Positions 1 to 62,757 of a stretch of DNA of 64,000 bases are shown here, in pieces. The stretch lies in contig JAGGWD010000005.1 in the NCBI GenBank assembly GCA_021157625.1, positions 2,118 through 66,117 of the forward strand, in the 5' to 3' direction. Positions within the stretch are counted from its first letter, which is position 1, and each line of letters begins with the position of its first letter. The position numbers were made by a program, and so were the translations under genes. This DNA is from a bacterium. GTDB taxonomy: Bacteria; Patescibacteriota; Minisyncoccia; Minisyncoccales; JAGGXC01. Under the pieces are notes generated by a model. It saw only the letters and a program-made list of their open reading frames with translations, was not told the DNA's origin and ran no database searches.

Positions 1-1226
1 CTAACCTCCTAACTATCTCAGAGGTTCCACCTCCTTTGATGCACTTAGCTCCTCTGATCTCAAAAAGAGATCAGAGTCCTGCTAAACGCAGGAAGATTTA
101 GGGACCTTAGATGGGAGTCAGGGCTGTTCCCCTCTCGACCTTGGACCTTAGCGCCCAAAGTCTAACTGCCGAGAATCCACAACCGGCATTCGGAGTTTGG
201 TTGGGATACCTGGCTTGAAACCACGGATATCCCATCCAGTGCTCTACCTCCGGTTGCTTCAAACTCGACGCTAGCCGAAAAGCTATTTCGGGGAGAACCA
301 GCTATTACCAAGCGCGGTTGGCCTTTCACCCCTTGCCACAGCTCATCCCAGAGTATTGCACGGCTCACGGGTTCGGGCCTCCCCCCGACTTTCGCCGGGG
401 TTCACCCTGGCCATGGCAAGCTCGCTTGGCTTCGGGTCTCCAACACCACCTCTAAAGGTCGCGCTATTAACGCTCGCTTTCACTATGCCTCCGCTCCAGA
501 GGAGCTTAGACAAAGGTGGTATTGGAACTCGTTGGCTCATTCTTCAATAGGCACGCCGTCACCCCGCCGAAGCGGAGCTCCGACTCTTTGTGGGCAAGAT
601 GGTTTCAGGTTCTATTTCACCGGGGTCACCCCCCTGCTTTTCACCTTTCCCTCACGGTACTAGTGCACTATCGGTGAGACGGACGTATTTAGCCTTGGCT
701 GGTAGTACAGCCTGCTTCCTCCGAGACTTTCGTTTCTCGGAGTACTCAAGAAAGATAACAAGGAGCGCAAAGGGGTTTTCGCCTACAGGACTATTACCTT
801 CTATGGTGCCCCTTTCCAGGGTGCTTCGGCTAACCAACCTTTGCCTAAATACTCTCCCTCGGCAAGCATTCTTGTGCACCAGGAATGCTCCCGACGTTAT
901 CTTCTTGCAACCCCTCAACAAAAATTTGTTGAGGTTTGGGCTCTTCCCTTTTCGCTCGCCGCTACTAAGGGAATGGTTTTGCGCAAAAGCGCAAAACTTT
1001 GTTTCTTTTCCTCCGCTTACTGAGATGTTTCACTTCAGCGGGTTCGCCTCTCGGCAGAAAGCCGAGATGTTCCGATTTATCATCGGAACGGGTTTCCCCA
1101 TTCGGAGATCCCCGGATCACAGGTTGCTAAGCACCTCCCCGGGGCTTATCGCAGCCACGCCACGTCCTTCATCGCCGCCGTCTCCCGAGGCATCCACCAT
1201 CTGCCCATAAAATGCTTCTCTTGGCC
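1..1226 (-). rRNA. rrl: 23S rRNA, 5' ~1.2 kb (remainder lies beyond the window start)
   Basis: Reverse complement of 1226->1150 reads GGCCAAGAGAAGCATTTTATGGGCAGATGGTGGATGCCTCGGGAGACGGCGGCGATGAAGGACGTGG, the conserved 23S 5' end. Plus strand ~1018-1033 is the complement of GUGAAACAUCUCAGUA. Plus strand 289-305 is the complement of GCUGGUUCUCCCCG. GC is far above the flanks, and ORFs here are short and mutually overlapping. Confidence 0.95.
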
Positions 1227-1457: not shown

Positions 1458-1991
1458 TTAATCTGTTTCTGGTTTAGGTTCTGCTGGTGTTGTTGATTGT
1501 GGTTGAGTTTTTTCTGTTTCTTTCTCTGCCTCTGGCTTCTCTTCTGGCTTCTCTTCTGGCTTCTCTTCAGGTTTCTCTTCGGGTTTTTCTTCGGGTTTCT
1601 CTTCGGGTTTCTCTTCGGGCTTCTCTTCGGGCTTCTCTTCGGGTTTTTCTTCGGGTTTTTCTTCGGGTTTCTCCGCTGGTTTCTCTTTGGATTCAGTTTC
1701 GGGTTTAGGTGACTCTTCTGTTTTCTTCTTCTTATGAACAGGAATCTTCTTTCCTTTTAAAATTTTTTGTTTTATAAGCAAATTATGGACGGTATCAGAA
1801 CATTTAGCACCTTGCTTCAACCAATACTCTATTCTTTCCTTTTTCAGAGATACTTCCTTTGTTAAAGGATTATAATAACCAAGACGTTCAATAAATTTCC
1901 CTCCTCTGGGAGGATTTTTCTTATCACATACTACTATCTGAAAAAAGGGTTGATTTTTTTTGCCTCTTCTGAGAAATCTTATAGCCAACAT
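1458..1991 (-). CDS. rpsP: 30S ribosomal protein S16 with a long C-terminal (PEEK)n acidic/basic tail
   Basis: N-terminal ~80 aa MLAIRFLRRGKKNQPFFQIVVCDKKNPPRGGKFIERLGYYNPL... is canonical S16. The remaining ~95 aa is low-complexity. Confidence 0.92.
   Translation of the reverse strand: MLAIRFLRRGKKNQPFFQIVVCDKKNPPRGGKFIERLGYYNPLTKEVSLKKERIEYWLKQGAKCSDTVHNLLIKQKILKGKKIPVHKKKKTEESPKPETESKEKPAEKPEEKPEEKPEEKPEEKPEEKPEEKPEEKPEEKPEEKPEEKPEEKPEAEKETEKTQPQSTTPAEPKPETD
1524..1679 (-). repeat. Tandem 12-bp coding repeat (11 perfect PEEK units plus 2 degenerate flanking units)
   Basis: Plus-strand units cttctcttctgg / tttctcttcggg / tttttcttcggg repeat head-to-tail with period 12. Confidence 0.9.
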
Positions 1992-1992
1992 A

Positions 1993-2682
1993 TTACCATT
2001 TTTTTATATTTAGTGCTTTCTTTGCTGCTTCAATTTCAGCTTCTTGTTTGGAAGATCCTTGACCTTTTGCTATTAATTGATCGTTCAAAAATACACCTAC
2101 TATAAAATGCTTTGCATGATCCGGCCCCCATTCCTCCAGCACTTTATATGTTGGAGTAATTCCTAACCTCTCTTGTGATTCTTCCTGAAGACGTGATTTC
2201 GGATCTTTGTATAATCCTTTTTCAATAATGCGCGGAAGTTCCTTTATCAGATGTTTTTTTATAAACTTCTTACTTGCATCATATCCTAGATCAAGATAAA
2301 TTGCTCCTATTAATGCTTCAAAATTGTTTGCTAGAATGTAGAGCCTTGCTTTAGAGTTATCTTTTTCTTCTCCTTTTGAAAGCAAGAGAAACTCTTCCAG
2401 ACCTAACTCTTTAGCTACTTGGGCAAGTTGATGAGAATTAACCAAAGCAGCACGCCAGTTAGTCAACTCTCCTTCAGTTTTGTCAGGATAATTCTCATAG
2501 AGATATTCTGTTACTACCAACTCAAGCACTGCATCTCCCAAGAATTCTAATCTTTCGTTATGACCTAAATGAAAATCGGGGTGTTCGTTTAGATAAGATC
2601 TGTGTACAAATGCCTGAATTAAAAGATCTTGATTATTGAACGTAAGATTTAATTTCTTTTCTAATAGAGAGAAATCTTTCAT
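1993..2682 (-). CDS. rnc: Ribonuclease III
   Basis: RNase III signature HNERLEFLGDAVLELVV plus a C-terminal dsRBD (GPDHAKHF...GSSKQEAEIEAAKKAL). Confidence 0.93.
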   Translation of the reverse strand: MKDFSLLEKKLNLTFNNQDLLIQAFVHRSYLNEHPDFHLGHNERLEFLGDAVLELVVTEYLYENYPDKTEGELTNWRAALVNSHQLAQVAKELGLEEFLLLSKGEEKDNSKARLYILANNFEALIGAIYLDLGYDASKKFIKKHLIKELPRIIEKGLYKDPKSRLQEESQERLGITPTYKVLEEWGPDHAKHFIVGVFLNDQLIAKGQGSSKQEAEIEAAKKALNIKKW

Positions 2683-2685
2683 AAA

Positions 2686-3114
2686 TTATTTTTTAATTTT
2701 CTCCATTTCTTTATATACTGTCCCCAATACTCCATTTATAAACCTACCAGAACTCTCACCTCCAAAACTTTTAGCTAGTTCTATTGCTTCATTAATGGCT
2801 ACCTTAGGTGGAACTTCTTCTTTATTACCATATAATAATTCATAAAGTCCAATTCTTAAGACATTTCTATCAACAATAGTAATTTTCTCAAGCGGCCATT
2901 CAGGGGCCGCTTTCTCTATAATCTTGTTTAATTGAGAGAGATGAGAAGTTATACCTTCAACCAATCTCCAAATAAACTTAGTATCTTCCAAGCCAGGTCC
3001 AAATTCTTCTATATTTCTTTGAACAATTTCTTTTAAATCTTTTTGTTGATGGTAAAAATCCCACTCGTATAAACTCTGCATTACAATTGAACGAGAAAGA
3101 TGTCTACTTCCCAT
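2686..3114 (-). CDS. nusB: Transcription antitermination factor NusB
   Basis: ~140 aa. [18 protein letters not shown]... and ...[26 protein letters not shown] are typical NusB. Confidence 0.88.
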
Positions 3115-3867: not shown

Positions 3868-3895
3868 GCCATTAGGAACCTCCTAATGGCTTTTT
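3868..3895 (+). terminator. Intrinsic terminator after the 3507 gene, overlapping the rnhB stop codon
   Basis: gccattagg (3868-3876) / cctaatggc (3882-3890), then ttttt. Confidence 0.7.
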
Positions 3896-5095: not shown

Positions 5096-8000
5096 ATGAA
5101 ATTCACCCACCTTCATCTACATTCTCATTACAGTTTACTTGACGGTCTACCCAAGATTGACGAAATTATTGAGTATGTCAAAGAGCTGGGAATGGACTCC
5201 GTAGCTTTAACCGATCATGGAAATCTTTATGGAGCAGTTGAGTTCTACAAAAAAGCAAAGCAAGCAGGAATTAAACCAATAATCGGATGCGAAATGTATC
5301 AGGCCTACGAAAGAATGGAACAGAAAAGACCTCATATCGATGATAAAAGGTATCACTTAGTGCTTCTGGTAAAAAATAAGGAAGGATATAAAAATTTAGT
5401 AAAACTTGTAACAGAGGCACATCTCCGAGGATTTTATTACAAACCAAGAATAGACGAGGAGATATTGGCCCAACACAGTTCTGGATTGATTGGGCTATCA
5501 GCTTGTCTTCAAGGCAAGATTCCTCAATTAATAATTGCTAACAAAATTGAAGAAGCAAAGAAAACTGCATTAAGATTCAAGGAAATTTTTGGAGAAGGAA
5601 ATTTTTATCTAGAACTCCAACACCATCCAAATATTCCCGAACAGAAAAAAGTAAACCAGGCATTGATTAGGTTTTCAAAAGAATTAAATATACCACTGGT
5701 GGCTACGTGTGATTCGCATTATCTAAGACCCGAAGATGCTCAAGCCCAGGATATCTTAATGCTTATCAATACAGGAGCTGATCCCAACGATCCTGAGAGA
5801 TTAACAATGAAATCTGATGTGTTTTCGGTAAGAAGTCCGCAAGAAATGATGGAATTTTTTAAAGATATACCTGAAGCAATTGAGAACACTCAAAGAATTG
5901 TAGAAGAATGCAATTTCGAATTCGAACTAGGAAAAACAAAACTACCACGATTTGAAGTTCCGGAAGGTAAAACTCCAAATTCCTATCTAAGGGAATTATG
6001 TCAAGAAGGACTGAAAAAAAGATATGGAACCTCTCCAAGGAAAGAAGTAATAGAAAGAATGGAATATGAACTTTCAGTTATAGAACAAACAGGATTTGCT
6101 TCATATTTTTTGATAGTTCAAGATTTTGTCAACTGGGCAAAACAAAGACGAATCGTTGTGGGACCAGGACGAGGATCAGCTGCAGGATCTCTTGTGGCTT
6201 ATCTTCTTGGAATCACCAATGTTGATCCTCTAAAATATAATCTTTTATTCGAAAGGTTTCTTAATAAAGAAAGGATTTCTATGCCCGATATTGATATTGA
6301 TTTTACTGACCGTAGACGAGATGAAGTAATAGAATATATAGCTCAAAAATATGGAAGAAACAGAGTAGCCCAAATCATTACTTTTGGAACAATGGCAGCA
6401 AGAGCAGTAGTAAGAGATGTGGGAAGAGCACTGGGTTACTCATATAGTTTCTGTGATAGAATTGCTAAAATGATACCTTTTGGATTTACCCTTGATCAAG
6501 CATTAGAGAAGATTAGCGAATTTCGTGAATTATATGAAAATGATGATAAAGTAAGAAAACTAATTGATTTTGCTAAAAAATTGGAAGGATGTGCCCGCCA
6601 TGCTTCTACACATGCTTGCGGAGTGGTAGTTTCCAACGAGCCATTAGACACAATTGTTCCTCTTCAACACCCTACTCAAGACGAAAAAACTATTGTTACT
6701 CAATATGAAATGCATTCAATTGAAGATCTTGGTCTTTTGAAAATAGATCTTCTGGGATTAAAAAATCTTACCATCATTGAAGATACACTAGCCCGGATTT
6801 ATAAAGTACAGAATAAAAAAATTGATATAGAAAACATTCCTCACGATGATAAAAAAACATTTGAATTGCTTCAAAAAGGAGAAACAACTGGCGTATTTCA
6901 GTTAGAATCAGATGGAATGAAAAAGTACTTAAAACAGTTAAAGCCAACTAAATTCGACGATATCATTGCTATGGTAGCTTTGTATCGACCTGGCCCAATG
7001 GGACTGATTCCTGAATACATTCAGAGAAAACATGGAATAAAAAAGATTGAATATCCTCACCCAAAGTGCGAAAAAATTCTTGCCTCTACATATGGCATTC
7101 CCGTCTATCAAGAACAAATTATGCAGATTGCTCAGGAATTAGCAGGATTTTCTTTGAGCGAAGCAGATATTTTGAGAAAAGCAATAGGAAAGAAGATAAA
7201 GAAACTATTACTTGCCCAGAAAGAGAAATTTATTAATGGAATGATAAGAAATAATATAAAAGAAGAAATAGCACAGAAGATATGGAGTTGGATTGAACCA
7301 GCAGCCCGATATAGCTTCAACAAGAGTCACGCTACTGCTTATGCCACCATTGCTTATCAGACAGCCTATCTTAAAGCCCACTTTCCAGTAGAATTTATGG
7401 CAGCCCTTTTGACTTCAGAAAAAAACGACACTGAGAGAATTTCAAAGCTCATTGGTGAATGTAAAAAAATGGGAATTGAGGTTTTGCCTCCGGACATCAA
7501 CGAAAGTTTCAGAAACTTTTCAGTGATTCCTAAAAAGAAAAAAATTCGATTTGGTCTTCTGGCTATTAAGAATGTTGGCCAAAATGTGGTAGAATCAATA
7601 ATTCGAGAGAGAGAGGAAAGAGGACCTTTTAGATCGATTTCTGATTTTGTCTCACGGATTGATGGAGATGTTTTAAACAAAAAGTCGCTGGAGAGTTTAA
7701 TAAAAGCCGGCGTTTTGGATAGTTTGGGAGAAAGAAATCGACTTCTTGCAAGTGTAGAAAAAATTCTTATCACAAACAGAGAAATAAGGAGATTGGAAAA
7801 AAACGGTCAAAAGAATCTCTTTGGTCGCTCTTTTCATTCTGCTTGTAATTTTAAATTAGAAGACGCAAAACCTATTTCTCTGCAAGAAAAGTTAATATGG
7901 GAGAAAGAACTCTTAGGACTTTATGTAAGCGCTCATCCATTGGAGAACTTCAAGAACATCCTAAAAAATAAAGTTCTACCTATTAAAGAAATTAGTGAGA

Positions 8001-16869: not shown

Positions 16870-18879
16870 TTATAATTTTAATTCTTCTTCTATTCTCAAT
16901 AATCTATTATATTTCTCTACCCTCTCCCCTCGAGCAGGTGCCCCGGCTTTTATAAAGTCAGCACTAACTCCTACAGCAAAATCAGCAATAAATGGATCAC
17001 AAGTATCGCCTGACCTATGAGAGACAAGTACCTTCCAACCATAAGATTTAGCAAGCTTTGCTGCCTCAATTGCCTCACTTACAGTCCCTACCTGATTTGG
17101 TTTTATTATTGCTCCAGAACAACATCCTATTCTATGAGCTTTTCTCATTCTCTCAATATTGGTTACCAAAAGGTCATCTCCTAAAATAAAAACTTTCTCT
17201 CCCAACATATCTTTCATTTTCTTGAATCCCTCAAAATCCTCTTCAGCAAAAGGATCCTCAATGAATATAATTGGAAATCTATTTACTAAATTCCGATAAA
17301 ACGCCAGGAGTTCTTCTCGTGACATTTTTCTTCCTTCAATAAAGTATCGTTTGTTTTGGTAGAACTGGGTGGCGGCTGCATCTATCCCAATTTTAATCTT
17401 TCTTAAAAGACCTGCTTTTTTTGCTGCTTCTGTGATTAACCTTAAAGCTTCAGAAGTTCTTTTCAGAGGCGGGGCAAATCCTCCCTCATCTCCTAAATTT
17501 ATAGCAAATTTTCCAAACTTTTTCTCAAGAATCTTTTTTAAAGTATGATATACTTTGACAGCTATTCTCAAATTTTCTGCAAACGAATCTTGTTGAGGAA
17601 TAATCATAAATTCCTGGATACTCAAATCATTGCCAGCATGAACTCCTCCATTAATTATGTTAAAGCAGGGTAAGGGAAGAATGAATTTCTCTTTTGGCGA
17701 AGTTAATAATCTGTCATTATAAATATCAGCAATATGTCGATAGAGAGAAATACTGCGTGCTTCTGCTCCTGCTCTACAGCAAGCTTCTGAGACAGGAAGT
17801 GTTGCATTAGCTCCCAGGTGACTTTTGTTCTTTGTTCCATCAAGTTTTGCAAGTAAAAAATCAATTTTTTTCTGATTTATTACATATTTTCCTTCAAGCG
17901 TTGGAGCAATAATATTGTTAACATTTTCAACTGCCCTAAGGACTCCTTTTCCATTATATCTTTTTCCTCCATCTCTTAATTCTTTAGCCTCATATTTTCC
18001 TTTTGATGCACCAGCCGGACAAGAAGCACGAAACACATTATTGTCGCAAATCAAGTCAACCTCAACAGTGGGATTTCCTCTTGAATCAAGAATTTCTCTT
18101 GCTTTTATTTTTTTAATTCTGAAAGTGAGCTTAATTCTTAAATTAAGCTCTTTAATTTTTTCCTTGAGCGATTTTTTCCTTTCCCTGTAGTGAGCAAATT
18201 TATATTTAAAGATATCTGACTTGATACCTCCAAATAATTCAAAATAAATACCTATAAGAGCATATTTTGTAGCCATTGTCATTCTTCCTTCTCTATCCAA
18301 CCTCCTTACTGAAACAGGAATTCGGCATGAAGTCAGGTATCTAAACTTTCCTATCTTTGAGGCTCTCTGGATATAATCAAAATCCTCTGCTACCCTCATT
18401 CTCTCATCAAAACCACCAATTTGATCGTGAATTTTTTTCTTCACCATTATAAAGTGACCAGCAGCCTTGGGTTTAAAAAACTGAGAAACGCCAAAATAAA
18501 AATTAGCAATATCGTACATCAGAGCATCTATATTTTTATCGCTTAATACTTGGATATAAGAAGAGGCTATATCCAAATTCTTTTTCTTGAATTCTTTGAG
18601 AGTTTGCTCAAGAAATTCCTTTGGCAAGACAACATCCGCATCCAAAAACACTAAAATCTCACCCCGCGCAACATCTGCTCCTCTATTCCTTCCTACTGCA
18701 GGCATACCTCCCTCTACCACTTTACATCCCCATTCCTCTGCTATCTTGCGTGTTTTGTCTTTTGAACCAGCATCAGCAACAATTACCTCAAAGTTTTTAT
18801 AGGTTTGATTCTTGAGGGATTTAAGAAGCAAAGGAAGATAATTCTCTTCATTTAATGTAGGAATGATAACAGAAATCAT
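16870..18879 (-). CDS. eno: Fusion protein: family 2 glycosyltransferase (N, ~240 aa) plus enolase (C, ~425 aa)
   Basis: N-terminus: ISVIIPTLNEENYL...VADAGSKDKT...FLDADV. From ~aa 245: IKAREILDSRGNPTVEV, GDEGGFAP, IEDPFAEED, LGDDLLVTN, IKPNQVGT and SHRSGDT...IKAG (complete enolase catalytic set). It is one uninterrupted ORF. Confidence 0.85.
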   Translation of the reverse strand: MISVIIPTLNEENYLPLLLKSLKNQTYKNFEVIVADAGSKDKTRKIAEEWGCKVVEGGMPAVGRNRGADVARGEILVFLDADVVLPKEFLEQTLKEFKKKNLDIASSYIQVLSDKNIDALMYDIANFYFGVSQFFKPKAAGHFIMVKKKIHDQIGGFDERMRVAEDFDYIQRASKIGKFRYLTSCRIPVSVRRLDREGRMTMATKYALIGIYFELFGGIKSDIFKYKFAHYRERKKSLKEKIKELNLRIKLTFRIKKIKAREILDSRGNPTVEVDLICDNNVFRASCPAGASKGKYEAKELRDGGKRYNGKGVLRAVENVNNIIAPTLEGKYVINQKKIDFLLAKLDGTKNKSHLGANATLPVSEACCRAGAEARSISLYRHIADIYNDRLLTSPKEKFILPLPCFNIINGGVHAGNDLSIQEFMIIPQQDSFAENLRIAVKVYHTLKKILEKKFGKFAINLGDEGGFAPPLKRTSEALRLITEAAKKAGLLRKIKIGIDAAATQFYQNKRYFIEGRKMSREELLAFYRNLVNRFPIIFIEDPFAEEDFEGFKKMKDMLGEKVFILGDDLLVTNIERMRKAHRIGCCSGAIIKPNQVGTVSEAIEAAKLAKSYGWKVLVSHRSGDTCDPFIADFAVGVSADFIKAGAPARGERVEKYNRLLRIEEELKL

Positions 18880-18933: not shown

Positions 18934-20085
18934 ATGAAAATTGGATTTTTCACCAATACCTATTTACCCATTCCTTACGGAATGGAGATTTCAATTGAGA
19001 GCTTTCGAAAAAACCTCGAAAAAATGGGTCACGAGGTTTTTATATTTGCTCCTTATTACAAAGGATACAAAGATACAAACCCGCGCATTTTCCGATTTAG
19101 AGCAATAAAAGTCTTCAGAAAAAAAGAAGTTTACTTCCCCTTTCCTTTTCTTGCTCAAAACGCTCGATTAAGAGATATTTTAAGCATTAAATTTGATATC
19201 GTCCATGCTCACTCTCCATTTAGCATGGGACTGTTTGCCAAATACATATCTTCAAGACAAAAAATTCCTTTGGTCTATACTCACCATATCCAATATGCCA
19301 AATATGCCAAGCTGTATTTCAAAAGAAGATTAATTCCTCCTTTCTTGGCAAGAAAATGGAGTAAATGGTTCTCAAATCTTTCTGATTTAGTAATTGCTCC
19401 TTCTTTCAAAATAAAACATATCCTGGAAGATTATGGTGTAAAGAAGAAAATAATAGTATTGAGTACCGGCATTGATACTAATGTCTTCAAGAAATCAAAA
19501 GAGCCAAAAAAATTAATCAGAAAGAAACTCAATCTTCCCTTGCAATCCAAAATTCTTTTGTTTGTTGGAAGGATTGAGATTGAGAAAAATCCTAGTTTTT
19601 TAATCCAGACCCTACCCAGAATTCTCAAATCCAGAAAAGATGCAGTCCTTTTAATAATAGGAGAAGGAAGCTTCCGAAATGCACTTCAAAAACAAGTGCA
19701 GAAAATGAATATAGAGAAATCAGTAATCTTTACTGGCAAGATTCCTCATTCAAAAATTCCTTTTTATTATCAAAGTTCTGATATTTTTGTTTTTTCTTCT
19801 TTAACTGAAACTCAAGGAATCATATTGTTGGAAGCAGCAGCTTGTGGTCTTCCTATTGTAGCTCTATGGGATGAAGCATTTTTAGATGTAGTGCAAGATA
19901 AAAAAAATGGCTTTCTTGTTAGAAAAGAAAGTCCAGATATCTTTGCAAAAAAGATCTTATATATTCTTAACAATCCTTCTATTTATATGAAATTTTCCTC
20001 TGCCTCTCAAAAAATAGGCCAATCTTTTTCAGAAATAAAACAAACCAAAAAACTTTTGGAAATTTATAATAGCCTGATAAAATAG
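18934..20085 (+). CDS. GT4 (GT-B) glycosyltransferase, similar to diacylglycerol glucosyltransferases
   Basis: MKIGFFTNTYLPIPYGMEISIESFRKNLEKMGHEVFIF and a C-terminal E-x7-E region (SLTETQGIILLEAAACGLPIV). Confidence 0.8.
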   Translation: MKIGFFTNTYLPIPYGMEISIESFRKNLEKMGHEVFIFAPYYKGYKDTNPRIFRFRAIKVFRKKEVYFPFPFLAQNARLRDILSIKFDIVHAHSPFSMGLFAKYISSRQKIPLVYTHHIQYAKYAKLYFKRRLIPPFLARKWSKWFSNLSDLVIAPSFKIKHILEDYGVKKKIIVLSTGIDTNVFKKSKEPKKLIRKKLNLPLQSKILLFVGRIEIEKNPSFLIQTLPRILKSRKDAVLLIIGEGSFRNALQKQVQKMNIEKSVIFTGKIPHSKIPFYYQSSDIFVFSSLTETQGIILLEAAACGLPIVALWDEAFLDVVQDKKNGFLVRKESPDIFAKKILYILNNPSIYMKFSSASQKIGQSFSEIKQTKKLLEIYNSLIK

Positions 20086-20086
20086 T

Positions 20087-21004
20087 TCATTTTAAGTTCT
20101 TTAGATAATCGTAACAAAAAAGGGCTGCTTTTGCTCCTTCTCCTGCTGCAATAATTATTTGCTTAAAGGCAACAGAACTTACATCTCCAGCAGCAAACAA
20201 GCCTGGAGTCTTTGTTTTGTTAGTACCTGGTTCAATTTTAATCTCTCCCCTTTCAGAAAATTCCACGAGATCTTCTTTGACAAAAACAGTGGCAGGAACT
20301 CGACCAATTTGAACGAAAACTCCATCTACCGAGAGACTTTTCTTTTTTCCTGAAACCCGATCAGAATAAGAAATTTCTCTAACGAAATTATCTCCCTTTA
20401 TCTCTTCGGTCTTAGCAGAAAGGATCACTTCGATTTTCTTTTCTTTCTCTACTTTCTCCTGAAGCACCTCATCTCCTTTTAGTTGTGAGGAGAATTCAAG
20501 AATATAGACTTTTTTTGCATACTTCACTAATTCTAGCGCTGCTTCAAGACCGCTATTTCCTCCCCCTACAACCGCTACCACTTTTTCTTTAAAAAAAGGT
20601 GCATCACATGTAACGCAGTAAGAGACCCCTTTTCCAATAAATTCTCTCTCTCCAGGAACTTCCAAAGACCTGGGAGACGCTCCCGAGGCTACAATCACTG
20701 ACTTTGCTTGATATTCATTATTTTGAGATGTCTTAACCACAAAGAAATTATCTTTCTTGTCAAGCTCCACTACTTCTTCTTGTTTTATTTGAGCTCCAAG
20801 ACTGTCAAGATGTTCTTTCATTCTCTTCAGTAGTTCAAGACCAGTTATCTTTTTGTATCCTGGCCAGTTCTCAATTATGGAAGCTTCACCTGCCTGGCCA
20901 ACAAAATCACGAGATATGAGCAGGGTATTTATTTTTTTTCTAATGGCATATATCGCTGCGGTTATTCCCGCAGGACCTCCTCCAATGATTATTAAGTCAA
21001 ACAT
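20087..21004 (-). CDS. trxB: Thioredoxin-disulfide reductase
   Basis: IIIGGGPAGITAAIYA, redox CVTC, and an NADPH site VVGGGNSGLEAA. 305 aa. Confidence 0.88.
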   Translation of the reverse strand: MFDLIIIGGGPAGITAAIYAIRKKINTLLISRDFVGQAGEASIIENWPGYKKITGLELLKRMKEHLDSLGAQIKQEEVVELDKKDNFFVVKTSQNNEYQAKSVIVASGASPRSLEVPGEREFIGKGVSYCVTCDAPFFKEKVVAVVGGGNSGLEAALELVKYAKKVYILEFSSQLKGDEVLQEKVEKEKKIEVILSAKTEEIKGDNFVREISYSDRVSGKKKSLSVDGVFVQIGRVPATVFVKEDLVEFSERGEIKIEPGTNKTKTPGLFAAGDVSSVAFKQIIIAAGEGAKAALFCYDYLKNLK

Positions 21005-28433: not shown

Positions 28434-28545
28434 AATGGTAGATCAAAAAACAAAAAATCTGCTTCCGCAGACAAAAAACAACAAAAAAACTTAATTATCC
28501 TCGGCAGGTCTTATTTTAATGCCTGCTGTCTGCGGATAAAGACAA
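28434..28545 (-). promoter_or_regulatory. rplJ leader with mutually exclusive long-range stem and terminator hairpin (L10-leader-type attenuator candidate)
   Basis: Minus strand CCGCAGAC (28535->28528) can pair with GUCUGCGG (28472->28465). That second segment overlaps the hairpin UCUGC-GGAA-GCAGA (28471->28458), which is followed by U6. Confidence 0.55.
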
Positions 28546-28549
28546 TTCT

Positions 28550-28579
28550 ATTATAACCAAATCTTTATTGAGCTGTCAA
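28550..28579 (-). promoter_or_regulatory. Promoter candidate for rplJ-rplL
   Basis: Minus strand: TTGACA (28579->28574), 18 nt, TATAAT (28555->28550). Confidence 0.6.
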
Positions 28580-45163: not shown

Positions 45164-45560
45164 AAAGCCCAACTAGGCTGTAAGCCGAATTCTGTACTTT
45201 TTCGGTATTTCTACCGAAAAAGTGGTAATCATTTCTCTGGGCCAGCAATTGCTTGCTGGCTCATGCGAACTACTTTTTCTTTTCGACAAATCCGGAGATT
45301 GTCGAAAAGTTTGTTCTTGCACCCGATAAGGATTTAGCCGTTTCACCCCCGAGATTTCTCTCGGGACTTTCCAACAACTCAGAGAGTTGTCGGAACCTCG
45401 GCTCTTTCGAGCCTCGGCGTCTCTGTTCGCACCTCTGGCCTCACGACCGACGGCTGTTAGCCGCTATCTTTTTTCCTTTCCGAATGGAAAGGAGGGTGTT
45501 CGGACTTTCCTTTCCGATTCCAAAAGGAATCGGAACGATTACCTCACCTAGTTGGGCTTT
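45164..45560 (-). ncRNA. rnpB: RNase P RNA, bacterial type A
   Basis: Minus strand: P1 5' AAGCCCAACUAGG pairs with 3' CCUAGUUGGGCUU. Conserved GGAAAGGAAAGUCCGAACACC near the 5' end, GGGGGUGAAACGGC internally, and ACAGAAUUCGGCUUACAGCC near the 3' end. GC-rich island. Confidence 0.9.
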
Positions 45561-62571: not shown

Positions 62572-62757
62572 CAAAAGGACCAGGGGAGTTGACTCCAATT
62601 CTAAGTCTTTCGGTGAGTGCTGGCCCCTGGTCCAATTTTTATTATACACTCCTAAAGCAATAAAGCAAGAAAAAAGTACTAGACCTTGCGCAAGGCAAGG
62701 TCTAGTACCGACTTTAGAATGGAGTCTCCGATTAAGAATCGGAGTCGCACTCACCAT
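62572..62757 (-). ncRNA. Unclassified structured RNA region (independent sRNA(s) or murB leader) with two terminator-like hairpins and internal long-range complementarity
   Basis: GC-rich island between a strong promoter and murB. The 13-bp hairpin 62708->62676 is followed by U6. The 10-bp stem GGACCAGGGG/CCCCUGGUCC (62633->62577) is followed by U4. Segments 62755->62747 and 62726->62710 are complementary to 62620->62612 and 62607->62591. Confidence 0.5.

Follow-up and report, generated by a model that had tools for sequence, protein, structure and literature searches.

Enolase is a highly conserved glycolytic enzyme that is almost always free-standing, and the classical bacterial example of fused glycolytic enzymes is the phosphoglycerate kinase-triosephosphate isomerase (PGK-TIM) fusion of Thermotoga. 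The 64-kb stretch of contig JAGGWD010000005.1 analysed here (hereafter the window, meaning the whole stretch) encodes an enolase as the C-terminal part of a family 2 glycosyltransferase (GT2), in a single open reading frame (ORF) of 669 amino acids (aa) that is shared, in frame, by a narrow family of related loci. We found no description of a GT2-enolase fusion in the literature searched, and public records label these proteins simply 'phosphopyruvate hydratase' or 'enolase'; we regard the fusion as a new domain architecture made of known kinds of domain. Its features are as follows.

16870..18879, minus strand: GT2-enolase fusion ORF, 669 aa, ATG start, stop codon at 16870-16872 (ORF list, Pfam, full-length orthologues P0001-P0020)
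18205..18879, minus strand: GT2 catalytic domain (GT-A fold), aa 1-225 (PF00535, PF10111, AlphaFold, Foldseek, family-invariant residues)
18118..18204, minus strand: lysine-rich 'linker', aa 226-254 (homology to the C-termini of standalone GT2s P0122-P0127)
18127..18129, minus strand: codon 251, CTC (Leu), at the position of the ancestral enolase start codon (junction DNA alignment)
16873..18117, minus strand: complete enolase (phosphopyruvate hydratase), aa 255-669 (TIGR01060, Enolase_N, Enolase_C, alignment with 2PA6)

The fusion recurs well beyond the window. Among the 5.8 billion protein clusters searched, 20 besides that of the window share GT2, Enolase_N and Enolase_C (660-700 aa, 64-99% identity; from JGI, ENA, NCBI and Logan) and align colinearly across the junction; below these 20 the match list falls directly to free enolases of ~415 aa. 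One of them, P0001 (99% identity), occurs on two independent assemblies (ENA ERZ27248349 and JGI 3300005099), each of which differs from the window at 28 of 2010 nucleotides (nt) and both of which are in frame, while P0002 and P0003 are represented by two assemblies each. Another 19 clusters, defined at 90% identity and reaching as low as 64% identity, show the in-frame junction too. When 1.84 billion representatives of 50%-identity clusters were scanned exhaustively with HMMER, exactly one matched the fusion over its full length; with this single 50%-identity cluster, the architecture is restricted to a narrow family. Compared with strain L172, the window has 23 synonymous differences and five nonsynonymous codons and, judged from these codons, the fusion is under purifying selection. 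The first-pass annotation of the window, made from its letters alone, had taken the fusion to be genuine and unusual, as is borne out by the in-frame junction in independent assemblies and across a diverged clade and by the single 50%-identity cluster; its suggestion that the fusion be looked for in related genomes is answered by the 20 further clusters at 64-99% identity.

Both domains are complete. Pfam places Glycos_transf_2 / Glyco_tranf_2_2 at aa 3-238, Enolase_N at aa 255-383 (from profile position 1) and Enolase_C at aa 399-667. The enolase part, comprising the 415 C-terminal residues, scores 485.8 bits against TIGR01060 'eno' (an NCBIfam equivalog with a cut-off of 300, which is exceeded), 334 bits against PF00113 and 174 bits against PF03952, and aligns end to end with the Methanocaldococcus jannaschii enolase 2PA6 (E 6e-130, 437 bits). 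The catalytic and metal-binding motifs (INGGVHAGN...QEFMI, GDEGGFAP, IDAAA, IEDP, GDDL, IKPNQ, SHRSGDT and IKAGAP) all align with 2PA6 and are invariant in a 25-sequence alignment; in yeast numbering, we take the catalytic and Mg2+ residues to be H159, E168, E211, D246, E295, D320, K345, H373 and K396. In its full Enolase_N and Enolase_C, its complete set of motifs, its above-cut-off score and its rate of evolution, which is that of its free relatives, this enolase is like the canonical enzyme (TIGR01060; 2PA6), and it is unlike it in having no start of its own and in following 254 residues of GT2 and tail. Two smaller differences from 2PA6 are SHRSGDT in place of SHRSGET, the D being common to free relatives of the same group, and an insertion of ~10 residues, DRLLTSPKEK (aa 394-403), which 2PA6 lacks. 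Among solved structures, an archaeal one matches the enolase domain best (2PA6, 437 bits); eukaryotic enolases come next (about 380-430), and bacterial ones score lower (e.g. 4A3R, 369).

The GT2 half scores above the cut-offs of PF00535 (102.6 bits; cut-off 23.3) and PF10111 (53.2 bits; cut-off 27.3), and shows no change at any position invariant in 79 homologues, D36, D80-A-D82 (the D-x-D motif) and E165-D166 among them. Its AlphaFold model is confident (predicted local distance difference test (pLDDT) 90, predicted template modelling score (pTM) 0.84), and Foldseek matches this model to the GT-A GT2 enzymes CgT, TarS, RmlT, TarP and K4CP (E 1e-11 to 2e-13, probability 1.00). The structurally closest enzymes are teichoic-acid and polysaccharide GT2s, a likeness that is generic for GT-A at 17-25% identity (CgT 5HEA, TarS, RmlT, TarP, chondroitin polymerase and the archaeal mannosyltransferase PcManGT). 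The best NCBIfam match is TIGR04283 (glyco_like_mftF, arsenosugar-biosynthesis small soluble GT2), which shares the size and GT-A layout of the domain and covers aa 2-212 with profile positions 1-207 of 221; at 121.3 bits against a cut-off of 182, however, the window GT2 is related to that family and not a member of it.

The fusion lacks any in-frame ATG, GTG or TTG from aa 203 to 275, the nearest in-frame starts being M200 and M202, within the GT2, and L276 (TTG) and V282 (GTG), ~20 residues into the enolase. AlphaFold models the full fusion with a mean pLDDT of 89.6 and confident domains, joined by a linker that falls below a pLDDT of 50 at aa 225-249 and includes a short helix (238-248); with an overall pTM of 0.66 and so poorly predicted a linker, the model contains no confident interdomain interface and no confident interdomain packing. 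Both halves look catalytically competent and would have retained their activities, and the product would be a bifunctional polypeptide of ~75 kDa in which a flexible tail joins an active GT-A glycosyltransferase to an active enolase. No second copy of enolase or of the GT2 was found in the 64-kb window searched. The ORF list and Pfam thus confirm one 669-aa ORF with a GT2, a lysine-rich stretch and a full enolase, as first annotated, and the same is true of the claims that the enolase keeps all its catalytic and metal residues and that it has no start codon of its own.

Enolase may also have acquired other N-terminal partners. Five metagenomic proteins (P0243, P0246, P0249, P0253 and P0286), which are candidates and possibly gene-calling artefacts, join it to RpiB (548 aa), guanylate kinase (645 aa), PGK (845 aa), phosphoglucose isomerase (PGI; partial, 690 aa) and pyruvate kinase (PK; partial, 679 aa). 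Four of these five partners (RpiB, PGK, PGI and PK) are sugar-phosphate or glycolytic enzymes and the fifth is guanylate kinase, whereas the partner in the window is a glycosyltransferase with no evident pathway link.

Unfused relatives indicate how the fusion may have arisen. When the GT2 half was used as query, standalone orthologues of 248-274 aa turned up (60-70% identity), and two of the contigs that carry them (L001 and L003) match the gene order of the window with GT2 and eno separate: FtsZ, NTP_transferase, thioredoxin-reductase (TrxR)-like, (GT4), GT2, eno, polyprenyl synthase, radical S-adenosylmethionine (SAM), miaA, miaB. In L001 the two genes overlap by 56 nt, from the eno ATG at 6749 to the end of GT2 at 6804; in L003 GT2 runs 64 nt past the true ATG of eno, at 6752 (protein MVSKIKKIQAREVLDSRGNP); and in a third unfused contig, which carries P0124, the two genes overlap by 17 nt. 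The unfused pair (L001/L002, L003 and the P0124 contig) is thus like the fusion in its GT2, down to the same lysine-rich tail, in its orthologous enolase (~65% identity) and in its flanking genes, but it consists of two ORFs overlapping by 17-64 nt, with eno under its own ATG and in the +1 frame relative to GT2 in all three contigs. No known shift-prone motif for programmed +1 frameshifting was seen by eye in the junctions of L001 and L003.

The junction DNA of fused and unfused loci can be aligned base for base. The distance between the anchors F-[KNR]-Y and DSRG is 134 nt in the fused loci (140 in L166), 132 in L001 and 135 in L003, so that the fused state amounts to a frame-merging insertion or deletion (indel) within ~10 nt upstream of the eno ATG. 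In this alignment the ancestral ATG, as present in L001 and L003, falls on codon 251 of the window, which is CTC; the same codon is ATC, ATA or ATT in L172, L171, L164, L168 and L169, GTA in L170 and ATG in L166. The linker is homologous to the C-terminal tails of standalone GT2s (P0122-P0127; e.g. ...HYxExxKTLKxKIKxLKLxIK), hence no new linker sequence was created: the lysine-rich linker described in the first-pass annotation is present, yet it represents the C-terminal tail of the GT2 itself. Across the orthologues it has no conserved in-frame start codon.

From these comparisons we suggest the following course of events. The ancestor would have carried a GT2 gene directly upstream of the housekeeping enolase gene, after GT4 and GT2 had been inserted upstream of an eno that earlier adjoined TrxR. 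The 3' end of GT2 would then have come to run 17-64 nt beyond the enolase ATG, with the frame offset by one, and a small indel just upstream of that ATG (-1 nt if counted from the L003 arrangement, +2 nt from that of L001) would have merged the frames. With the GT2 stop codon lost, the lysine-rich GT2 tail (to ~aa 250) would have become a linker joined to the former enolase N-terminus. Translated from the GT2 start, the enolase would no longer have needed its own ATG, which would then have decayed to Ile, Val or Leu in most descendants (CTC in the window). The persistence of the fusion is explained most economically if it locks into 1:1 co-expression two genes of a streamlined genome that were closely packed and overlapping beforehand; no shared pathway need be invoked, and the enolase half would remain a glycolytic enzyme. 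One sample (ENA ERZ27252253) yields both L001 (k141_3226913, unfused-type) and L170 (k141_1255313, fused-type, P0019), so the two states coexist in one community.

A neighbour-joining tree of 117 enolase domains places the 21 fused sequences in one clade with no unfused member inside it (90% bootstrap), and its sister consists of the unfused P0021-P0024 and L003 (99.5% for fused plus sister). Root-to-tip distances are 0.163 for fused and 0.159 for free enolases, an equality that gives no sign of neofunctionalisation. As the nearest free enolases carry the names Parcubacteria DG_74_2 and Ca. Nealsonbacteria, the fused clade is probably a small, uncultured, Parcubacteria-like group. In an outgroup locus, L174 (4072-9234, NCBI GCA_043819385.1, annotated Ca. 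Nealsonbacteria), the TrxR-like gene directly precedes a free eno, which is followed by a His_Phos_1 (phosphoglycerate-mutase-type) gene and, further on, by glyceraldehyde-3-phosphate dehydrogenase (GAPDH), while a pair of [NiFe]-hydrogenase small and large subunit genes and HypC lie upstream. The L174 locus contains no GT4, GT2, prenyltransferase or homologue of tetraether lipid synthase (Tes) and, with no GT2 between TrxR and eno, it implies that the GT2-eno adjacency is recent. Likewise, among the matches listed from metagenome and GTDB contigs, none of 160 loci with distant GT2 homologues (<=51% identity) has an enolase within 4 kb.

The junction also contains an inverted repeat, which the first-pass annotation had singled out and which is exact in the sequence.

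18127..18150, no strand assigned: perfect inverted repeat with a 10-bp stem and 4-nt loop, codons 244-251 (E-L-N-L-R-I-K-L) (sequence)

It reads GAGCTTAATT-CTTA-AATTAAGCTC, is AU-rich with three G-C pairs, and as RNA of the sense strand has a minimum free energy (MFE) of -9.7 kcal/mol; the surrounding 101-nt junction folds no better than 12 of 200 shuffles (z = -1.68). Perfect hairpins as a class are enriched in the window, which holds nine distinct ones of >=10 bp (loops of 3-8 nt; 14 entries) against 1.25 entries per 64 kb in first-order Markov simulations, or about one expected by chance per window. Others with stems of 10-14 bp lie at 52-76, 1303-1330, 3868-3890, 10804-10831, 11877-11910 and 62676-62708, and two lie inside the RNase P RNA (45196-45223 and 45512-45535); several have flanking A/T runs, for example AAAAACCGCTT...AAGCGGTTTTT at 1303-1330, and look like bidirectional terminators.

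The perfect stem at the junction is peculiar to the window strain. Where the window has GAGCTTAATTTAAGAATTAAGCTC (10 of 10 pairs, -9.7 kcal/mol), L172 and L173, at 98.6% nt identity, have GAGCTTAATTTAAGAATCAAGATC (8 of 10 pairs, -0.6 kcal/mol as computed for L172), and L171, L164, L166, L168, L169 and L170 form 4-7 pairs with an MFE of 0 to -2.2 kcal/mol for the 24-mer. None of the seven other fused loci examined has the perfect stem, nor does either unfused locus (L001 or L003), and RNAalifold finds no consensus structure at the site. Across eight fused loci 66% of the stem cells are nevertheless paired, against 27-49% in slid controls, a level reached by 25 of 500 shuffles; we put this shared quasi-palindromy down to a conserved peptide, L-N-L-x-I-K, in whose coding sequence CTT-AAT and ATT-AAG are reverse complements of each other. 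With AT-rich codons (CTT AAT ... ATT AAG) the peptide would by itself give a quasi-palindrome of 6-7 bp, and one or two recent substitutions in the window strain, including ATC to CTC, would have perfected it. Two bases needed for the perfect stem differ from the sister strains, T not C at gene position 747 and C not A at 751. The latter changes Ile to Leu (ATC to CTC) at the former start codon and is clearly derived, since all other fused sequences have I, V or M there, and the change at 747 cannot be polarised.

Correction of quasi-palindromes by template switching is a mutational mechanism known from studies of E. coli and phage T4, and it is a plausible cause of the perfecting changes. As in that process, an imperfect repeat (8 of 10 pairs in the sister strains) has become perfect in one lineage, and both differences fall in the 3' arm, 4 nt apart, and are exactly those that restore complementarity; unlike the textbook case, the A-to-C change at codon 251 is the sole one that can be polarised, and two independent point mutations may be the cause instead. 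We conclude that the hairpin is strain-specific and without a function of its own.

Taken together, we consider the fusion genuine, fixed and evolutionarily maintained, arising by the frame merge outlined above with the hairpin as a late and incidental addition, and give this explanation as a whole a probability of about 0.8. Several points weigh against it. Mean column identity of the linker among the fusions is 0.79, equal to that of both catalytic domains and beyond the need of an accidental spacer, which hints at membrane or partner binding or at a constraint of oligomer geometry. The lack of a confident interface in the AlphaFold model neither backs nor rules out a functional one. The single 75-kDa product is deduced from the absence of start codons, and a free enolase may exist elsewhere in these genomes, the search for one having covered the window. 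The tree was built by neighbour joining alone, and it gives the fused clade a short stem (0.013). Finally, the weak quasi-palindromy shared by the fused loci is not formally separable from weak selection on RNA.

The simplest alternative, that a base missing or extra in an A-rich junction has falsely joined two genes, deserves a hearing, as the junction does contain indel-error-prone A6-A7 runs, sister lineages truly carry GT2 and eno in two frames, and the relative L171 has a frameshift elsewhere in the gene. Nonetheless it is effectively refuted already: the junction is in frame in the window, in two near-identical strains from independent assemblies and in a further 19 clusters with identities as low as 64%, several of which come from two assemblies, and an artefact could not explain why the enolase ATG is mutated in most of the fused sequences. 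L171 itself (1873-2811, plus strand, ENA ERZ23491060; 88% identity over the GT2) has the same in-frame GT2-eno junction, its ORF ending at aa 312 by a frameshift in the enolase part (after ...KELRD) with the enolase resuming in the other frame, which marks either a pseudogene or an assembly error. Two products might still be made, if translation also began internally at a non-canonical codon (ATT or ATA in ...RIKKIK...) or if a protease cut the linker, which is predicted to be flexible (pLDDT <50). Several ATT and ATA codons do lie at the former enolase N-terminus, and L166 keeps ATG at the ancestral position, but aa 203-275 offer no ATG, GTG or TTG, neither a start codon nor a Shine-Dalgarno-like motif is conserved across the orthologues, and the decay of the ATG in most lineages suggests that internal initiation is not under selection; we regard two products as unlikely. 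Unlikely, too, is a 'Rosetta stone' reading, in which the fusion reflects functional coupling, with the GT2 using or feeding 2-phosphoglycerate or phosphoenolpyruvate (PEP), or with its tail holding enolase at the membrane. This reading is compatible with the evolutionary account, to which it adds a selective reason, and it draws on the retention of the fusion to 64% identity, on a linker conserved like the domains, on the position of enolase between glycosyltransferase genes and isoprenoid-lipid genes in all members, and on a weak N-terminal match to glucosyl-3-phosphoglycerate synthase (GpgS; NF010496, E 2e-10). Against it, the outgroup enolase adjoins glycolytic genes and no GT2, the GT2 model is generic GT-A with no specific similarity to GpgS, no confident interdomain interface is predicted, the rate of enolase evolution did not change after fusion, and enolase is fused elsewhere to partners as unrelated as RpiB, guanylate kinase, PGK, PGI and PK. 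We also considered, and rejected, a GpgS-like GT2 acting on phosphoglycerate: NF010496 covers only aa 2-87 at 40 bits (cut-off 262), and GpgS chains in the PDB have E about 0.009, outside the top 50 fold matches. More specifically, the conserved lysine-rich tail might tether enolase to a membrane-associated glycosyltransferase of an archaeal-type lipid and glycan cluster, made up of GT4, GT2-enolase, a geranylgeranyl-pyrophosphate-synthase-like prenyltransferase and a full-length Tes homologue, and so couple it to envelope biosynthesis, an idea that we think improbable; were it true, an ultra-small bacterium would be directing glycolytic flux, or a group derived from phosphoglycerate or PEP, into the making of glycolipids or glycans. 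No evidence ties the activities of enolase and GT2 functionally.

The hairpin invites two functional readings of its own, both raised in the first-pass annotation, and neither survives the comparison with relatives. An origin as an intrinsic terminator, left over from an intergenic region that would once have separated GT2 and eno, is suggested by its place at the seam, its last three bases being the former enolase start codon, and by a consensus terminator scan that flags it. In the unfused relatives, however, GT2 and eno overlap by 17-64 nt, so there was no intergenic region and no terminator to swallow; the flag is on the antisense strand only, where the T-run is the complement of lysine codons, and the scan found two terminator-like sites against 2.7 +/- 1.9 expected; the sense strand continues after the stem as ACUUUCAGAAUUAAAAAAA, with no U-tract; and the stem is missing from L001, L003 and the seven other fused loci, having been perfected in the window strain only. 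A terminator relic is therefore extremely improbable. The alternative of a translational pause site or regulatory element, which might for example let the GT2 fold co-translationally before enolase emerges, can point to the position of the hairpin between the domains, to the excess of paired stem cells over slid controls (66% against 27-49%) and to five pairs that change on both sides (reached by 15 of 500 shuffles). It too is very unlikely, since a stable stem exists in the window strain only, the 98.6%-identical relatives retaining 8 of 10 pairs at -0.6 kcal/mol and the others about 0, RNAalifold reports nothing at the site, and the conserved peptide L-N-L-x-I-K explains the residual pairing. 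An AU-rich 10-bp stem at -9.7 kcal/mol is, moreover, a weak obstacle to a translating ribosome.

The genes around the fusion are conserved with it.

15841..16863, minus strand: polyprenyl diphosphate synthase, starting 6 nt past the fusion stop (ORF; PDB 4DHD, E 3e-62, and 1WY0)
14169..15767, minus strand: radical-SAM protein, 532 aa, full-length homologue of the archaeal tetraether lipid synthase GDGT-MAS (7TOL)
18934..20085, plus strand: GT4-family (Glycos_transf_1) glycosyltransferase, divergent from the fusion across a 54-nt spacer (ORF)
20087..21004, minus strand: thioredoxin-reductase-like flavoprotein, whose outgroup counterpart lies directly upstream of enolase (ORF)

The polyprenyl diphosphate synthase is probably in the same operon as the fusion, and it is conserved in all related loci; of its two structural matches, 1WY0 was deposited as a geranylgeranyl pyrophosphate (GGPP) synthetase, and both are presumably from hyperthermophilic archaea. 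Next to it, as second gene downstream of the fusion, stands the radical-SAM protein, which carries PF23545 and PF04055 and aligns with M. jannaschii GDGT-MAS 7TOL over aa 16-505 against 19-512 (E 2e-106). This place is kept in every related locus, with orthologues in L001 (9010-10533), L003 (9040-10560), L166 (8808-10379), L168 (5896-7416), L169 (9085-10614) and L170 (9153-10673). The block of polyprenyl synthase, enolase and Tes homologue looks archaeal in type. A survey of Tes homologues has taken in the candidate phyla radiation (CPR; Zeng et al., 2022, PMC8941075), and a Tes homologue beside a prenyltransferase in a CPR-like bacterium may bear on membrane-spanning or isoprenoid lipids in bacteria.

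On the other side of the fusion, the same divergent GT4 neighbour is found in L001, L166, L171 and L172, and the Pyr_redox_2 neighbour in all loci. A second fusion of adjacent genes in this neighbourhood occurs in L166 (10428-12596, minus strand, NCBI GCA_021163265.1), in which miaB and miaA form one 722-aa ORF (UPF0004 + Radical_SAM + TRAM + IPPT); the two are separate in L001, L003, L168, L169 and L170. Besides four tRNAs, the window also holds the following RNA features, of which the 23S rRNA and the RNase P RNA mark its source as bacterial and no more than that.

1-1220, minus strand: bacterial 23S rRNA, the 5' 1.2 kb, cut by the window end
28443-28553, minus strand: L10 leader
45165-45555, minus strand: type-A RNase P RNA

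This lineage, then, seems to produce its enolase solely as the C-terminal half of a glycosyltransferase, and sister lineages preserve an intermediate stage in which the two genes overlap out of frame. Together they would make an exemplary case of the way in which a streamlined genome turns overlapping genes into a fusion, by a one-base merging of frames followed by the decay of the internal start codon. Annotation of these proteins as plain enolase or 'phosphopyruvate hydratase' hides the GT2 half. The hairpin adds a caution, in that a conserved peptide in AT-rich codons, together with one or two substitutions, can yield a perfect stem that looks meaningful. For the biology of ultra-small bacteria, the fusion may serve as a handle on the localisation of enolase, or on its partners beyond glycolysis, although no such role is demonstrated here.

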